This document shows, piece after piece, positions 8,576 through 13,651 of a stretch of 36,958 nt of DNA. Under the pieces are notes generated by a model. It was not told where the DNA came from and made no database searches. It was given only the letters and a program-made list of their open reading frames with translations. Source of the stretch: a virus (Duplodnaviria > Heunggongvirae > Uroviricota > Caudoviricetes); the IMG/VR virus record IMGVR_UViG_2897346870_000003, positions 1 to 36,958 of that record; one strand, given 5' to 3'. Position numbers and translations under genes: made by a program. Each line of letters begins with the position of its first letter. Positions within the stretch are counted from its first letter, which is position 1.

Positions 8576-8926
8576 ATGCGTGATATGTATGAAGTATTGG
8601 ACCGCTGGGGTGCATGGGCTGCAGCAGATAACAGTGGTGTGGACTGGCAGCCTGTTGCTGCAGGGTTTAAAGGTTTACTACCTCATGGAAAGAAAACACG
8701 CCAACAATGCGATGATGATGAAGGCATCATGATTGACAGCTGTGTTGCGCGATTGCGGAAATATAAGCCAGAAGAATATGAACTGATCATTGCTCACTTT
8801 GTTATCGGTATTTCACTCCGTTCAATAGCAAAGAAACGGAAATGCTCTGACGGGTCAATCAGAAAACAACTTCAAGCAGCAATAGGAGTGATTGAAGGTA
8901 TTTTGTTGATTATTAAGCCCCTGTAG
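8576..8926 (+). CDS. Q: Late-gene antitermination protein Q
   Basis: MRDMYEVLDRWGAWAA... with conserved YELIIAHFVIGISLRSIAKKRKCSDGSIRKQL segment; GGAGAAGG Shine-Dalgarno. Confidence 0.88.
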   Translation: MRDMYEVLDRWGAWAAADNSGVDWQPVAAGFKGLLPHGKKTRQQCDDDEGIMIDSCVARLRKYKPEEYELIIAHFVIGISLRSIAKKRKCSDGSIRKQLQAAIGVIEGILLIIKPL

Positions 8927-8929
8927 GGC

Positions 8930-9514
8930 TTAATAATTCATATGAATTCTGTTTCCGAGATAATATAATCCAAAGAAAGTTGATACTAAGAGTTGCCAAA
9001 CGAGGAAAGTAAATACAACAGTATAAACCATTAAAACAATACTGTTTTGATAGACATTGATTAATGGTGAAAATATAGCATTAAGTATTATTATAACAAT
9101 GCTTAATGCTGTTAAAAAAGAGAATAGCATGCAAAGAAATAATCGTCTGGTCAGAACCTCCTCTGAATTTACTACTTTTCCATTTTCTTTTGTTACTTTT
9201 ATTTCAATAGAGGCATTTCTTTCATTGCTAATCAATGGTAAATCAATCTCAGCTCTATTGAAAGTTGCTATGGCGGCCAGAGCGGCAATATAAAACCCTG
9301 GTAGGTTAGAGATAAATGAAACGATTGATTTAATGAAACCATTGTCATCAAATAAATCTTTGACAGGGATTTTTAATAGAATGAAAAGTACTGCTGTGAT
9401 AGAAGTAAGTAGAATTGGTGCTACCCAATCATATGCAGCTTTGCCGCTAATACCTTTAATAAAAAGATATCCAAACGGCTTGCCTAGATGAGAGAAAACT
9501 GAAAGTATTGGCAT
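8930..9514 (-). CDS. Hypothetical 194-aa integral membrane protein with four predicted TM helices (candidate membrane effector)
   Basis: Four hydrophobic helices (WVAPILLTSITAVLFILL; IVSFISNLPGFYIAALAAIATF; LFLCMLFSFLTALSIVIIILNAIF; IVLMVYTVVFTFLVWQLLVSTFFGLYYL); GAGG Shine-Dalgarno; 7-nt gap to the upstream gene. Confidence 0.75.
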   Translation of the reverse strand: MPILSVFSHLGKPFGYLFIKGISGKAAYDWVAPILLTSITAVLFILLKIPVKDLFDDNGFIKSIVSFISNLPGFYIAALAAIATFNRAEIDLPLISNERNASIEIKVTKENGKVVNSEEVLTRRLFLCMLFSFLTALSIVIIILNAIFSPLINVYQNSIVLMVYTVVFTFLVWQLLVSTFFGLYYLGNRIHMNY

Positions 9515-9521
9515 AATAACC

Positions 9522-10544
9522 TCACATCAAATCTATCATTTTCACAACAAACTCTAGTTCAATTTTAACATATGAATCCTTCAGGCGCGAATTAAAGTTA
9601 TCGATAATGCTTTTCTTAATAAATGTTTTTTCTAAATTATTAAGATTGATGTTTGAGGTTTTGAAATCAACCTGCCTTGGTTTATTTGTTTCAGGATCTT
9701 GGAATTTAACCTTTAATTTATCATAACCACCATTCATTTTTTTATTGAAATGAGATGCTACATTTTTAATCCATCCAATAACATTGTCACCATGATTTGG
9801 AAGTAATTTTAATGTACTTTCAGTCGGAATGTAAGGTGAATTAACATCAGGAGCATTAATTGTTCCGAATTGATCCTTGACTAATATGACATCTGATAAT
9901 CCTTTTTGGCTTATTTTATTAAAAAGCTCCTTGTCTAACATTCCTGTAAATTCAAATATTGGTTTGTATCGTATTTTTACTTCTTTTTTTGATGTTGCAG
10001 AAATAACGTTAGTTGGATGTTTTGCGGTAAATAAGTCTTCATTGTCTTTCGCCACTTCAAAGAGAATTTTGTCTAAAAAACTATTTAACCGGGCCGTAGA
10101 TACACCTGGGGTAGATGTACAAATCATATCATAGGTTCTTTTATTTCCATTTAATGATATGACAACATAGGTAGAAACTTCATAGCCTTCACCTTGTTCA
10201 TATTTTGGTTGGATTTCAACGCGTTCATTAGTATTTATATTTTTTACAACGGTAGTACTTCCATTTTTATCAACACTATTAATAAGAAGGACAATATGCG
10301 TGGGTGAGTTATCTGGAAGTAAAGGATAAAGTTGTACATCTTGGAGAGTAACTACAATATTCCCAGAATCATATGAATGAACGAGTCCCTTTTGTTTAAC
10401 AATCAATGGGGCAAGCATGTACATTTCCGGAACAGGACATATACACTGGGCTTTTACCTCTTGTGTTGCCTTGGTTCTAAACTTTGTGTCAATGGTCAGA
10501 CTATGATGAGTAACGAGTCTTTCGCTAGCATTTAATTTTGCCAT
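9522..10544 (-). CDS. Hypothetical 340-aa soluble protein; first gene of an AT-rich antisense cargo operon (candidate sensor of a defence-like pair)
   Basis: Long ORF antisense to the late operon, visibly AT-rich with Lys/Asn-rich product; no family recognised by eye; no nucleotidyltransferase GS...DxD motif seen. Confidence 0.75.
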   Translation of the reverse strand: MAKLNASERLVTHHSLTIDTKFRTKATQEVKAQCICPVPEMYMLAPLIVKQKGLVHSYDSGNIVVTLQDVQLYPLLPDNSPTHIVLLINSVDKNGSTTVVKNINTNERVEIQPKYEQGEGYEVSTYVVISLNGNKRTYDMICTSTPGVSTARLNSFLDKILFEVAKDNEDLFTAKHPTNVISATSKKEVKIRYKPIFEFTGMLDKELFNKISQKGLSDVILVKDQFGTINAPDVNSPYIPTESTLKLLPNHGDNVIGWIKNVASHFNKKMNGGYDKLKVKFQDPETNKPRQVDFKTSNINLNNLEKTFIKKSIIDNFNSRLKDSYVKIELEFVVKMIDLM

Positions 10545-10829: not shown

Positions 10830-11156
10830 ATGCCTCATAACCCAAATACCTGGCTGGAGTTGTTCCAGAGCTGGTGGCGTGGAGACACACCGCTGGGCGC
10901 AGTGATTATGTCGATCGTTATGGCTGGCTTGCGCATTGCCTATTTTGGCGGTGGTGGTGGCTGGAAACGAAAAACGCTCGAGATTTTGCTCTGTGGTGCT
11001 CTGACGCTGACTTTTGCATCCGCTCTTGAGTATGTCGGATGGCCTAAATCTCTTTCTGTTGCCATTGGTGGCGGCGTTGGGCTGATCGGGGTCGATGCTA
11101 TTCGTGGGGCTGCAATGAGAGTAATCGGTAATAAGTTTGGTGGCTCTAAGGAGTAA
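10830..11156 (+). CDS. Holin (three predicted TM segments)
   Basis: 108 aa, hydrophobic segments, charged C-terminus, directly upstream of the endolysin. Confidence 0.75.
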   Translation: MPHNPNTWLELFQSWWRGDTPLGAVIMSIVMAGLRIAYFGGGGGWKRKTLEILLCGALTLTFASALEYVGWPKSLSVAIGGGVGLIGVDAIRGAAMRVIGNKFGGSKE

Positions 11157-11159
11157 TTT

Positions 11160-11636
11160 ATGCAGGTACTAAATTCCCAGCGTAAAGCTTTCCTCGATAT
11201 GGTGGCATGGTCAGAAGGAACGGATAACGGGCGAAAACCGACACGTAACCACGGTTATGATGTTATTGTCGGTGGAGAACTCTTCACTGATTACTCCGAT
11301 CACCCTCGCAAGCTTGTCACGCTAAACCCGAAACTCAAATCAACAGCTGCAGGCCGTTATCAACTTCTTTCGCGCTGGTGGGATGCTTACCGCAAGCAGT
11401 TAGGGCTGACAGACTTCTCTCCTAAAAGCCAGGATGCTGTTGCATTACAGCAGATTAAAGAGCGTGGCGCTTTACCGATGATTGATCGCGGCGATATTCG
11501 TCAGGCTATCGATCGTTGCAGCAATATCTGGGCGTCGTTACCTGGTGCAGGTTACGGTCAGTATGAACATAAAATCGGTGACCTGATTTCCCGGTTTAAA
11601 GAGGCTGGTGGGGTGGTAAATGAAGTTGAGCTATAA
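11160..11636 (+). CDS. R: Endolysin, lambda R-type lytic transglycosylase
   Basis: 158 aa; near-collinear with the lambda R sequence as recalled (QRKAFLDMVAWSEGTDNGRKPTRNHGYDVIVGGELFTDYSDHPRK...). Confidence 0.95.
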   Translation: MQVLNSQRKAFLDMVAWSEGTDNGRKPTRNHGYDVIVGGELFTDYSDHPRKLVTLNPKLKSTAAGRYQLLSRWWDAYRKQLGLTDFSPKSQDAVALQQIKERGALPMIDRGDIRQAIDRCSNIWASLPGAGYGQYEHKIGDLISRFKEAGGVVNEVEL

Positions 11637-12012
11637 GCTGGTTATCGCTGCATTCTTCTTTACTGTCATCGGTTCTTTCATCTGGTCTGCCAACCACTAC
11701 TACAGCAAATATCAGCACGAAAAGAAACGTGCTGATGAGGCTGTACAAAATGCTGAATCTGCAACAGCCATTACCCGTAACGTCCTGCAATCACTGCAAA
11801 TCGTCAATACAGTTATAGAGGTTAACCAGCATGCAAAACAGCAGATCGCACTGGAGTCACAGAGAACCCAGAAAGATATCAAAGTGGCTGTTGCGGATGA
11901 TGATTGTGCTGCACGCCTTGTGCCTGCTGCCGCTGCTGAGCGGTTGCGGAAGTACGCGGACAGTTTACGTACAAGTTCCGGCAGTACCACTCCCGACGAA
12001 TCTGATCGCTGA
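11620..12012 (+). CDS. Rz: Spanin inner-membrane subunit (Rz)
   Basis: N-terminal TM anchor, coiled-coil body, position after the endolysin. Confidence 0.85.
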   Translation: MKLSYKLVIAAFFFTVIGSFIWSANHYYSKYQHEKKRADEAVQNAESATAITRNVLQSLQIVNTVIEVNQHAKQQIALESQRTQKDIKVAVADDDCAARLVPAAAAERLRKYADSLRTSSGSTTPDESDR

Positions 12013-12154
12013 AACCTCGCAACCAGTTATTCCTGAGCCGCTGACTTTTGAGGGCAGCCTAGATTTGAACGTTAGTCTGTTATCGGCGTTGGGTCAATGT
12101 AACCTTGACAAGGCTAGCATCAGACAGATTGAACAATCACGATTCTCACAATAG
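11897..12154 (+). CDS. Rz1: Spanin outer-membrane lipoprotein subunit (Rz1), +1 frame overlapping Rz
   Basis: MMIVLHALCLLPLLSGC lipoprotein signal with lipobox, Pro-rich mature part; extends past the Rz stop. Confidence 0.65.
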   Translation: MMIVLHALCLLPLLSGCGSTRTVYVQVPAVPLPTNLIAETSQPVIPEPLTFEGSLDLNVSLLSALGQCNLDKASIRQIEQSRFSQ

Positions 12155-12302
12155 CGAGTTTTTATCATAAGAAAGGTGCTTTTCACTAAATCCCTGCATT
12201 TGAAGCTGAAGATGGAAAGAAACGCTACTGGGTATACTACTACTGGTCGCTTATTCTGAATCAGAAGAGAACGGCGTCCTTCAGCTCGAAGAGTCGGCTA
12301 TA

Positions 12303-12325
12303 AACAGGCACTTTGGGTGCCTGTT
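12303..12325. repeat. Hairpin AACAGGCAC-TTTGG-GTGCCTGTT just 3' of the minus-strand 131-aa gene
   Basis: Read directly; shares CAGGCAC arms with the palindrome at 12815-12839. Confidence 0.5.
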
Positions 12326-12330
12326 AATGA

Positions 12331-12726
12331 TTAGTCCTGCATGAATCTCTCTCTTTCTATTTCATAACCGTCGCTTTCTTCTCGGCAGTTTTGACATAAG
12401 AGATCTCCATAGTAACCTTGTAAGTTATAAGCTTCTTCTAGCTCATAGCCAGAGATAACCTTAGAGCAACCGTTATGGTGCCCGCCTGGATTTCTAACAC
12501 CACCACATGGGTGAGAAAGGAAAGGTTGCAATACCCTCTTTTGCGGTGCAGAAAGACTATCAAATCCTTTGGTTACAGCTAACTTAGCGATTCCACTAAC
12601 TTTGCCATCTTCATGATAAAATGCGTCACAATTAAGCATTGTATTGAGTAATGATTCTACTTCGTCAGACACTGGAAATACCTCTCTATAAACAAAAGTA
12701 ATAGCTATCACACAAAGCTTAAGCAC
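12331..12726 (-). CDS. Hypothetical Cys/His-rich small protein (up to 131 aa; start uncertain, ATG at 12639 possible)
   Basis: ORF in an AT-rich antisense island; C-terminal HPCGG...GGHHNGC...CQNC motif suggests a zinc-binding fold; no clear Shine-Dalgarno. Confidence 0.5.
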   Translation of the reverse strand: MLKLCVIAITFVYREVFPVSDEVESLLNTMLNCDAFYHEDGKVSGIAKLAVTKGFDSLSAPQKRVLQPFLSHPCGGVRNPGGHHNGCSKVISGYELEEAYNLQGYYGDLLCQNCREESDGYEIERERFMQD

Positions 12727-12814
12727 ATAAACTAAAATAAATCAAAATGTTAATGATAATCGTATAGTAAAAAGAAAAGGCTGAAGTAGCCGAGAGGTAG
12801 CAATAGCAGGTTAA

Positions 12815-12839
12815 GGCAGGCACTTAGTAAGTGCCTGCC
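12815..12839. repeat. Perfect 25-bp palindrome GGCAGGCACTTA-G-TAAGTGCCTGCC just 3' of the minus-strand 69-aa gene
   Basis: Read directly. Confidence 0.55.
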
Positions 12840-12844
12840 ACTGG

Positions 12845-13054
12845 TTAGTAACAAGATGGTGTATTGTTGAATCTGTAAGAGAGGCGAACTATTTCAGAAA
12901 CCCCTTTTCGGTTTAACAATCGCCTTATATTCTCTGGATTTTTGTAAATAAAAGGATTCCTTAGATCCTCGAACACTCCTCCTGCAATGCAAATCAAATA
13001 TTCCAGATCTTCTTGTGTTGGTAAGGTTGAAAGTTTGTTATTTGCATTATTCAT
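12845..13054 (-). CDS. Hypothetical small protein (69 aa)
   Basis: Start chosen at MNNANNK because AGGAG lies 8 nt upstream; AT-rich, antisense to flanking phage genes. Confidence 0.55.
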   Translation of the reverse strand: MNNANNKLSTLPTQEDLEYLICIAGGVFEDLRNPFIYKNPENIRRLLNRKGVSEIVRLSYRFNNTPSCY

Positions 13055-13175
13055 TTTACAGCTCCTAATTATTGCCGTTATTGGCGTGGTGCATGATAGG
13101 AAGTTTGTGATTTTTAACGGTAGCTGGGGCAAGCTTTTTGTGAATCCTATGCACATCATCAAATCGAGTTTTTCA

Positions 13176-13526
13176 ATGCCACAACGAACCCCAAAAGCCT
13201 GCCGTGTTCGCGGCTGCCACCATACCACTACTGACCCGTCAGGCTACTGCGAAAGCCACAAAAGCGAAGGCTGGAAGCAATACAAGCCAGGCCAGTCCCG
13301 ACACCAGCGCGGTTATGGTTCGAAATGGGATGTTATCCGTGAACGTGTGCTCAAGCGTGACAAAGGCCTGTGTCAGTTGTGCCTGCGTGCTGGTGTGGTG
13401 CGTGAGGCGAAGACCGTTGACCACATCATCCCTAAATCGCATGGCGGCACTGATGTCGACAGTAATCTGCAGAGTTTGTGCTGGCCGTGTCATAAGGCGA
13501 AGACGGCCCGTGAACGGCTAAAGTGA
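13176..13526 (+). CDS. HNH endonuclease (terminase-associated)
   Basis: CxxC...HH...CxxCH motif (ACRVRGCHH...VDHIIPKSHGGTDVDSNLQSLCWPCH), immediately upstream of the terminase genes. Confidence 0.85.
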   Translation: MPQRTPKACRVRGCHHTTTDPSGYCESHKSEGWKQYKPGQSRHQRGYGSKWDVIRERVLKRDKGLCQLCLRAGVVREAKTVDHIIPKSHGGTDVDSNLQSLCWPCHKAKTARERLK

Positions 13527-13620
13527 TAATAATTCTCAACTGCCAGTGGGGAGGGGCGGGTCAAATCCCTGTGACCTGACGTCTTCCGGACTGCCCGCCC
13601 CATCGTTTTTTTATACCCGC
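13527..13620. other. Putative packaging site (cos-like) or terminator: GGGGCGGG...CCCGCCCC inverted repeat followed by a T7 run
   Basis: Read directly between the HNH and small-terminase genes; GGGCGG-containing motif loosely reminiscent of lambda cosN. Confidence 0.3.
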
Positions 13621-13651
13621 GAAAAATGAAATTTAACCAGGAGTGCCGCAT

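Follow-up and report, generated by a model that had tools for sequence, protein, structure and literature searches.

A widespread 40-bp stem-loop element at the borders of accessory genes in temperate enterobacterial phages, and a two-gene cargo block in an Escherichia coli prophage

Between the lysis and packaging genes of IMGVR_UViG_2897346870_000003, a viral sequence of 36,958 nucleotides that was analysed over its whole length (the window) and that is a lambdoid, HK97-like Escherichia coli prophage, lie two small minus-strand open reading frames (ORFs), called here ORF-A and ORF-B, each followed by a hairpin (H1 and H2, respectively). An earlier note on this DNA had described an AT-rich block with two antisense ORFs between Rz1 and the HNH and terminase genes, and had read it as modular cargo units, a shared protein-binding site or a repeated insertion scar, and possibly as a toxin-antitoxin, anti-defence or superinfection-exclusion locus; its observation was confirmed and its interpretation was partly supported. 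A search of other prophages for the palindrome near small ORFs, which the note had proposed, revealed a widespread 40-bp palindromic element of which H1 and H2 appear to be diverged copies. This element lies outside the frame of the earlier note and is a more interesting result than the genes themselves.

Two antisense genes and their hairpins in a variable slot

The slot that holds the two ORFs lies between the Rz1/LysC gene and the HNH endonuclease gene, after which a P27-family small terminase gene and then a large terminase gene follow on the plus strand (Table 1). GC content was 0.36-0.42 across 12300-13050, compared to 0.50-0.59 in the flanking lysis and terminase genes. The lysis or HNH flanks are common to more than 1300 E. 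coli genomes and the content between them varies, with homology to other E. coli prophages stopping near 12141-12154, at the end of Rz1/LysC. The cassette DNA itself was present in 4 of 5426 complete E. coli genomes and had no match among sequenced phages, and the 148-nucleotide spacer on its left, in which the ORF list holds no ORF of 30 or more amino acids, was found by sensitive blastn in the same four genomes. Lysogens with this cassette include E. coli RX24, ARS-C101, STEC17-183 and S19-651. In a sister prophage of E. coli 20AR1039 the slot is empty, with 26 nucleotides between the Rz1 stop and the HNH start and no hairpin, and in E. coli LR-03, PBS4 and Q5 the same slot is occupied by other cargo. 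The cargo of one sister prophage is an antisense trypsin-like peptidase gene, matching the PADLOC candidate defence family PDC-S45 (E=5e-21), and further prophages carry a GrlR-family gene or hypothetical pairs, all of them with ordinary terminators of their own. Because the empty slot has no hairpin and the spacer is tied to the cassette, the block 12155-13175, including its hairpins, reads as horizontally acquired cargo in a hypervariable accessory ('moron') slot, made up of two independent single-gene units. A hairpin belonging to the phage backbone was ruled out by the empty slot.

ORF-A was listed with a GTG start as a protein of 131 amino acids (12331-12726), and the earlier note had taken it for a Cys/His-rich protein of up to that length. 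The true start is almost certainly the GTG at 12672, giving 113 amino acids, because AGAGG lies 8 nucleotides upstream, because the annotation pipeline PGAP gives a gene of 342 nucleotides in E. coli RX24 (WP_001361772.1), and because of the starts of the homologues, which are all 112 amino acids long and begin with MSE. In the homologue alignment four cysteines (C56, C69, C93 and C96) were invariant and the histidines varied, so that the cysteine-rich part of the earlier description held and the histidine part, along with the length, did not; the four cysteines would form a probable Cys4 zinc site. ORF-A matches phrog_12178, a PHROG of 'unknown function', and its homologues fall into 12 clusters, in Klebsiella, Pectobacterium, Enterobacter and metagenomes; a Halomonas phage protein is 45% identical to it. 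In comparisons with three homologues, substitutions were mainly at third codon positions (for example, 23/13/60). AlphaFold2 gave a confident model (predicted local distance difference test, pLDDT, 91.6; predicted template modelling score, pTM, 0.80) in which the N-terminal part is helical and the cysteines sit in a small beta element; no structural match was obtained for the model, leaving the fold unplaced. Genes of this family were antisense within the lysis-to-packaging region in every context, once between the two terminase genes. A small palindrome, GATAGCTAT (12698-12711; GATAGnTATC-like), which precedes the start of ORF-A by about 25-40 nucleotides, was kept across loci L169, L012 and L004 in a DNA alignment of four ORF-A loci, and could be an operator or an element of the 5' untranslated region.

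ORF-B, whose length and Shine-Dalgarno sequence had been given correctly in the earlier note, starts with ATG, and the PHROG that it matches is likewise of 'unknown function'. An exhaustive HMMER search returned a family of 56-70 amino acids with the core EYLI..AAG.IEDLK.P.IYNNPENIRKLLNR.GVSEI, with members in HK97-like phages of E. coli and Hafnia, in a Pantoea prophage and in a Proteus phage whose terminase is of the lambda type. The AlphaFold2 model was weak (pLDDT 64). In all contexts examined the family was antisense on the packaging-module side of the lysis-packaging junction, adjoining an HNH gene in five of six, and the 5' region of ORF-B was conserved with that of the homologue locus L003. 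PGAP misses ORF-B in E. coli RX24 (L001), despite a conserved family with a PHROG, and the small genes of this slot are systematically under-annotated.

Both ORFs are real genes, given their codon-position bias and their homologue families. Neither matched any Pfam, NCBIfam or PADLOC family, nor any toxin or antitoxin family among these, and a profile search of PDB sequences gave no useful match. The two genes were found together only in near-identical copies of this cassette, with 23 further loci carrying ORF-A only and 10 carrying ORF-B only. A toxin-antitoxin or otherwise obligately paired module would agree with two small, co-oriented, adjacent prophage genes of unknown function, but co-occurrence confined to copies of one cassette, and above all the 33 loci with one gene and not the other, argue for excluding an obligate pair. 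The 172-nucleotide gap between the genes contains a stable hairpin, and each gene has its own ribosome-binding site and upstream region; together with the lack of a family match this makes the toxin-antitoxin reading of the earlier note extremely improbable.

Both hairpins end 5 nucleotides from the stop codon of their gene. The arms of H2 (12815-12826 with 12828-12839) are 12 nucleotides long and 100% complementary, and those of H1 (12300-12311 with 12317-12328) are complementary at 92% and include a perfect core of 9 bp (12303-12325). They have CAGGCACTT/AAGTGCCTG in common, so that the near identity claimed for them earlier holds for a core of 7-9 bp, and does not extend to the loops and outer pairs, which differ. 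The pattern CAGGCAC-N(1-12)-GTGCCTG occurs twice in the 37-kb window versus 0.00 expected, and a degenerate CAGGCAC pattern found the same two sites (2 versus 0.01 expected). Minus-strand RNA folding gave -14.5 and -21.3 kcal/mol (z about -4). Tested as intrinsic terminators both failed, having no proper U-tract (UUUAU comes after H1 and UUAACC after H2), and a terminator scan of the window reported nothing at either hairpin. Rfam gave no match in the window.

Table 1. Coordinates of the cargo block, its hairpins and the genes on either side.
Feature	Position	Strand	Remarks
Holin gene	10830-11156	+	Lysis side of slot
GH24 lysozyme gene	11160-11636	+	Lysis side of slot
Rz	11620-12012	+	Lysis side of slot
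Rz1/LysC lipoprotein spanin gene	11831-12154	+	Left slot border; from ORF list and PGAP in the identical E. coli RX24 sequence
Non-coding spacer, 148 nucleotides	12155-12302		Part of cargo block, present only with the cassette; possibly relic of earlier cargo
Hairpin H1	12303-12325		AACAGGCAC-tttgg-GTGCCTGTT; putative diverged copy of the 40-bp element
ORF-A, 113 amino acids	12331-12672	-	Predicted cytoplasmic; four invariant cysteines, N-terminal helical domain
ORF-A 5' region	12673-12814	-	TATGAT-like -10 candidate, partly conserved; palindrome GATAGCTAT
Hairpin H2	12815-12839		GGCAGGCACTTA-g-TAAGTGCCTGCC; putative diverged copy of the 40-bp element
ORF-B, 69 amino acids	12845-13054	-	Predicted helical, cytoplasmic; phrog_22590 (E=1e-40)
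ORF-B 5' region	13055-13175	-	Divergent from HNH gene; AGGAG at 13062-13066
HNH endonuclease gene	13176-13526	+	Right slot border, first gene of packaging block; Pfam HNH (E=1.5e-16); 351 nucleotides in PGAP

A 40-bp stem-loop element in temperate phages

The canonical element has 40 bp, GGCATTACA-GCAGGCATTCACTGAGTGCCTG-TGATAATGC, and its whole palindrome is GGCATTACAGCAGGCATTCACTGAGTGCCTGTGATAATGC. A scan of IMG/VR with the 22-nucleotide core GCAGGCAYTCASTGARTGCCTG found at least 120 loci, compared to an estimated 0.05 or so by chance; flanks and neighbours were counted from the approximately 121-129 instances listed. Conservation was near-total from 9 nucleotides left of the core (GGCATTACA) to 9 nucleotides right of it (TGATAATGC) and at background beyond, and the flanks of about 121 listed instances fell into 63 left classes and 83 right classes in at least 91 combinations. 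A co-oriented ORF ended at the element in 87 of 121 listed instances, 43 of them exactly at its first base, and in 79 of 129 a co-oriented ORF with a Shine-Dalgarno sequence started a median of 39 nucleotides downstream. The right arm TGTGATAAT was present in 81 of 129. The neighbours were diverse accessory genes (DUF2560/phrog_571, Rz-like spanins, Rha, HNH, lipoproteins, DUF551 and many unknowns), with HNH the most frequent downstream, and lysis or packaging genes lay within 4 kb in at least 107 of 120 listed loci, the counts of packaging genes near the element being lower bounds.

The element is carried by 47 sequenced phages, including phi80, mEp390, phiP27, cdtI, ST64B, Fels-1, Pectobacterium ZF40 and many Klebsiella phages, and in those inspected it always lay in or near the lysis-packaging junction. 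It was found in 160 of the 5426 E. coli genomes, at 1-3 places in each, and all places inspected were in prophages; a variant marked by TGTAAT occurred in 1 of 185,579 species-representative genomes. A chromosomal repeat of the repetitive extragenic palindromic (REP) type, mobilised by a REP-associated tyrosine transposase (RAYT), was ruled out by this low copy number and by the single species genome. An unrelated gene cassette encoding 157 amino acids ends with the same hairpin and TGTAATGC in three backbones, with homology stopping 2 nucleotides after, and three or more cargo genes, unrelated to each other, are followed by the same core with flanks TGTAAT / TGATAATG. Direct pairs of copies bracket single genes at loci L207, L226 and L241.

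The stem-loop is conserved as a structure, since over 22 diverse members 89% of cells could pair, compared to 26-39% when the partners were slid, and in 8 of 15 stem pairs both partners vary (at the innermost pair ten members have C-G, eight U-A and four U-G). The spacing of the half-sites varies from 5 to 8 nucleotides, which argues for recognition of a folded hairpin over a duplex operator. The strand that has a U-G wobble in its stem, rather than a C-A mismatch, was co-oriented with lysis or packaging genes in 286 of 294 gene hits, and this orientation bias, with the wobble pairs on the transcribed strand, suggests an RNA-level role in the late-strand transcript. The core sequence in either orientation was not found in the literature searched, and Rfam returned nothing but noise on the phi80 copy, so that the element is, as far as could be found, apparently undescribed. 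A preprint on a prophage small RNA, Pas, proved to be unrelated. A permissive scan for GCAGGCAC-N1-9-GTGCCTGC gave 119 matches, about the chance level, and was dropped as mostly noise, such matches being informative only with a TGTAAT flank or the full core.

H1 and H2 can be tied to the element because it, or its variants, accompanies ORF-A and ORF-B homologues elsewhere. Downstream of ORF-A homologues stand GCAGGCAC-tcacagg-GTGCCTGC-TGTAATG at locus L012 and CAGGCACC-tata-GGTGCCTG in the Pectobacterium prophage L169, and the hairpin is degenerate at L004 and decayed in Klebsiella. L169 also has the canonical element upstream of ORF-A, which is thus bracketed by two copies as in the window, where two direct copies lie 512 bp apart on either side of the gene. 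Downstream of the ORF-B homologue at L003 is GCAGGCATTCACTGAGTGCCTGC-TGTAAT, and the same sequence separates ORF-B from a convergent gene in E. coli loci L161 and L177. In the window H1 retains, on the plus strand, GGCtaTAaA to the left and T-TAATG to the right of the element, and H2 retains the core only; this H2 core is, except for one base, that of a variant from Mu-like prophages (GCAGGCACTT-nnnn-AAGTGCCTGC). The promoter-like right arm has been lost in both. The 'modular cargo units' of the earlier note are borne out by these contexts, in that the slot is empty or differently filled elsewhere, each gene moves with its own hairpin, and the hairpin belongs to a widespread element found at mosaic breakpoints.

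That H1 and H2 might instead be ordinary, unrelated intrinsic terminators, similar by chance or convergence, is suggested by their GC-rich stems close behind stop codons and by the UUUAU that follows H1 on the gene strand. The scan nevertheless saw no terminator-like site at either, H2 has no U-tract, two matches were found where practically none was expected, and the same core and flanks stand after three or more unrelated cargo genes and on at least 120 phage contigs. The canonical element, followed by UGAUAAUG, also has no U-tract, and in phi80 it is directly followed by a separate canonical terminator. We therefore judge this alternative very unlikely.

Several individual copies are of interest in their own right. 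In the phi80 prophage of E. coli DH5alpha (L175 2501-2560) the element has a Rha-family gene on one side and a convergent antisense gene of 204 amino acids on the other, with the separate terminator AGCCCGT-acaaa-ACGGGCTT directly after it; because phi80 carries the element, common cloning strains with phi80 lacZ-delta-M15 contain it. Mu-like prophages (L028, L030, L040, L055, L176 and others) have the variant CATTACA-GCAGGCACTT-nnnn-AAGTGCCTGC-GATAATG, with a freely varying loop and an invariant stem, between a small ORF (71-81 amino acids at the two loci read) and gemA/gp16, a context quite unlike the lambdoid lysis-packaging junction. At L003 (781-803) the inner 13 nucleotides, comprising the loop and the wobble position, are inverted relative to the ATTACA/TGTAAT flank when compared to L161, L169 and L177, as would be expected from strand switching or recombination between the arms of a palindrome. 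The Elizabethkingia phage EKP1 (INPHARED OM284015.1, 35841-35883) has a 100% identical 43-nucleotide copy despite its Bacteroidota host label, and this record may reflect a wrong host assignment or contamination.

Since the element lies just upstream of HNH and terminase genes, a few hundred bases from the record end in cdtI, ST64B, Kpn74, KpLi5 and EPP-1, and in an orientation fixed relative to the late genes and hence to the direction of packaging, it might be a DNA-level packaging signal, such as an accessory site near cos, to which the antisense genes are merely adjacent. Its presence in the Mu-like transposable phages, far from any cos, speaks against this, as do a distance to terminase that ranges from adjacent to more than 2 kb, the two copies in some phages, including the window, and the wobble pairs that favour one transcribed strand. 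A packaging signal is, in our estimation, highly unlikely.

Mosaic junctions, gene exchange and possible functions

The end of the DUF2560 gene was joined to the start of the neighbouring HNH gene to give a query that lacks the element, and in 20 of 21 sequenced phages the match to this query either ended or began precisely where the element lies. The element was present at every junction inspected, and among the sequenced phages no empty element site was found between the DUF2560 gene and HNH. This shows the element to be a discrete unit at mosaic junctions. We propose that its stem-loop, in the transcript, would close the message of the upstream gene as an attenuator or 3'-end stabiliser; a classical intrinsic terminator is not implied, because the element has no U-tract and phi80 has a canonical terminator of its own next to it. 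The canonical right arm TGTGATAAT may then restart transcription as an extended -10 promoter. Because the element is the sole sequence common to otherwise unrelated neighbours, it may also serve as a homology patch at which phages exchange accessory genes, and the two copies around ORF-A would fit a unit of gene plus element that recombined into a resident element. In temperate enterobacterial phages the exchange of accessory genes at the lysis-packaging junction is thus marked by the element, which probably also mediates it.

A related but distinct explanation is that the element is itself mobile, or is the site of a dedicated enzyme (as a miniature inverted-repeat, REP/RAYT-like or attC-like sequence), the window copies being footprints of insertion; the HNH endonuclease that is often adjacent might then nick it. 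Sharp boundaries around a near-invariant 40 bp in at least 91 flank combinations would be accounted for in this way, as would the half-site spacing that fits folded-hairpin recognition, the flipped inner core of L003, the direct copies around single genes and the position of HNH as the commonest downstream neighbour. Mobility would, however, lead one to look for a target-site duplication, of which none was recognised, and for an empty site, of which none was found; the element occupies only 1-3 places per E. coli genome, with its TGTAAT variant in a single species genome, it has no integron-type GTTRRRY core, and at 40 bp it is below the attC range. Its nearly constant slot fits inheritance and recombination better than free transposition, and we regard a mobile element as rather unlikely.

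The more inclusive explanation, that the block consists of cargo units with diverged copies of the element, that the stem-loop boundary acts as an exchange patch and that the proteins are accessory to the lysogen, is in our assessment just on the probable side. Several points weigh against it. No pair of empty and filled sites was found that would separate insertion, recombination at the element and plain inheritance. A near-invariant 40 bp exceeds what a stem-loop needs and suggests either very recent spread or a sequence-specific partner. The canonical flanks are gone from the window copies, whose membership rests on a core of 7-9 bp and on the contexts of homologues, and distant homologues of both genes have other terminators (a canonical, unrelated one after ORF-A) or none; the association of gene and hairpin could therefore be shared history in one phage lineage and not a functional requirement. 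Finally, the promoter scan found no consensus sigma-70 promoter for either ORF, and PADLOC returned 0 families at E<=1 for either protein, which tells against a defence-type role.

Other features of the window were also observed. Another antisense, AT-rich cassette (8930-10544, minus strand) lies between a Q-like antiterminator gene and the holin gene and encodes proteins of 194 (a membrane protein) and 340 amino acids that match PADLOC PDC-M53 (M53B, E=1.8e-54; M53A, E=2.1e-32); in its place E. coli RX24 has genes for a cytosine methyltransferase, a DUF262 protein and a HEPN-like nuclease. The Q-like gene and the PDC-M53B gene converge on a hairpin at 8921-8950, TTATTAAGCCC-ctgt-AGGGCTTAATAA, which is unrelated, has no CAGGCAC core and looks like a conventional bidirectional terminator. 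A candidate cos region is the spacer between the HNH and small terminase genes (13527-13642), in which a T-run comes after an inverted motif rich in GC, GGGGAGGGGCGGGTC ... CCGCCCC; a similar motif, CGCCCCGTGG...GGGAGTACCTT, adjoins the antisense genes at L012 and at the Proteus locus L164.

Because PDC-M53 occupies the other cassette and PDC-S45 the same slot in a sister prophage, our best guess, drawn from context, is that both proteins have an accessory function expressed in the lysogen, such as phage exclusion or defence. The main alternative is an anti-defence role, in which ORF-A, ORF-B or both would be anti-defence or early takeover genes expressed from the first-injected end and not in the lysogen; in lambda the right genome end is injected first. 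In its favour, these are small, fast-evolving proteins with no known family, whose genes point inward from a position some 0.1-1 kb away from the HNH/cos end, and ORF-A has a novel compact predicted fold, as do many anti-defence proteins. Antisense orientation, separate upstream regions and low GC content nevertheless fit the pattern of a lysogen-expressed moron, and the neighbouring cargo consists of defence candidates and not of anti-defence genes, so that early expression is an unlikely reading. An anti-defence or superinfection-exclusion role is possible, with support from the neighbouring candidate defence genes alone. As two rare, conserved, structurally unplaced proteins in a slot that in other prophages carries candidate defence genes, ORF-A and ORF-B are reasonable candidates for functional screens.

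A bolder possibility, which we hold only tentatively, is that GGCATTACAGCAGGCATTCACTGAGTGCCTGTGATAATGC is the working part of an apparently undescribed cassette-exchange system of temperate enterobacterial phages, in which it would be a recombination site in folded or duplex form. Accessory or defence genes would then be excised one at a time, as circles of gene plus element, and re-inserted at any resident copy, and the lysis-packaging junction would be an integron-like or PeSL-like (promoter-early stem-loop) platform for gene shuffling, of which the window, with ORF-A bracketed, would capture one event. It has been debated whether phage mosaicism arises by illegitimate recombination and selection or by homologous exchange at short shared 'linker' sequences, and the debate extends to the way in which prophages trade defence and fitness genes at a small number of hot spots. 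The element offers a concrete handle on this debate, as it is discrete, sits at homology breaks and can be deleted, moved or mutated in tractable phages. It also has value for annotation, marking the borders of cargo genes, among which ORF-B was overlooked by a standard pipeline.

Comparison with known systems

Of the systems with which the locus can be compared, type II toxin-antitoxin modules resemble it in having two small, adjacent, co-oriented genes on a mobile element, and differ in that the genes here are not co-inherited, are not translationally coupled (being separated by the gap and hairpin) and match no such family. REPs and bacterial interspersed mosaic elements (BIMEs) are likewise imperfect palindromes of about 35-40 bp just after stop codons, conserved in sequence and not in structure alone, with a likely role as stabilisers of mRNA 3' ends. 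A chromosome, however, holds tens to hundreds of REPs, which open with a tetranucleotide of the GTAG type, whereas the element has no such tetranucleotide and is confined to 1-3 places per genome, in prophages at all places inspected.

Integron cassettes are also promoter-poor single genes in tandem, each followed by an imperfect palindrome, and a circular intermediate of gene plus site would explain a gene bracketed by two copies. Their attC sites have an R''-L''/L'-R' architecture with a GTTRRRY core and are 55-141 bp long. The element, by contrast, is 40 bp with ends GGCATTACA and TGATAATGC and, read by eye, no GTTRRRY / RYYYAAC, and ORF-A and ORF-B, which lie in a phage late operon, each have a ribosome-binding site and an upstream region to themselves.

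We class ORF-A and ORF-B as new members of the morons, as defined in PMC3594210. Like HK97 gene 15 and lambda bor, they are extra genes of lower GC content within a late operon, found between the same flanking genes in some close relatives and missing there in others, with their own upstream region and a 3' stem-loop, and like bor they are antisense. The slot is also the position at which lambda carries bor, between Rz and cos. As regards a promoter and terminator of their own, they have conserved upstream regions and a stable 3' hairpin; unlike in the known examples, no sigma-70 consensus promoter or U-tract terminator was detected here by the scans. They also differ in that their proteins have no relationship to Bor or to other moron products so far characterised and that their stem-loop belongs to a family common to many unrelated genes, and is not private.

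The promoter-early stem-loop (PeSL) cassettes of T4-type phages (Arbiol et al. 2010, PMC2839356; Comeau et al. 2014, PMC4122927) consist of a stop codon, a stem-loop, a promoter box and a Shine-Dalgarno sequence; they lie at junctions of insertion or replacement, and mini-circles form between copies (PMC2839356). The element differs in its hosts, which are temperate lambdoid and Mu-like phages and not lytic T4-like ones, in being one near-invariant 40-bp sequence rather than a loose class of motif, in having no -35 box or AT-rich upstream tract but a possible extended -10 only, and in being known from sequence alone. The canonical copies have the PeSL layout, with 87 of 121 abutting a stop codon and 81 of 129 having TGTGATAAT; the two window copies are stem-loops only, without the promoter-like arm. 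In common with PeSLs, it is a repeated intergenic motif that runs from the stop codon of an accessory gene to the Shine-Dalgarno sequence of the next and combines a stable stem-loop, including G-U pairs, with a promoter-like box. Its copies, too, cluster in a hyperplastic region and coincide with junctions of insertion, deletion and replacement (in 20 of 21 phages, in 91 flank combinations and in the three backbones of the 157-amino-acid cassette), and direct copies bracket single ORFs. By this analogy we read the element as a portable stem-loop boundary comparable to the PeSL cassettes of T4.

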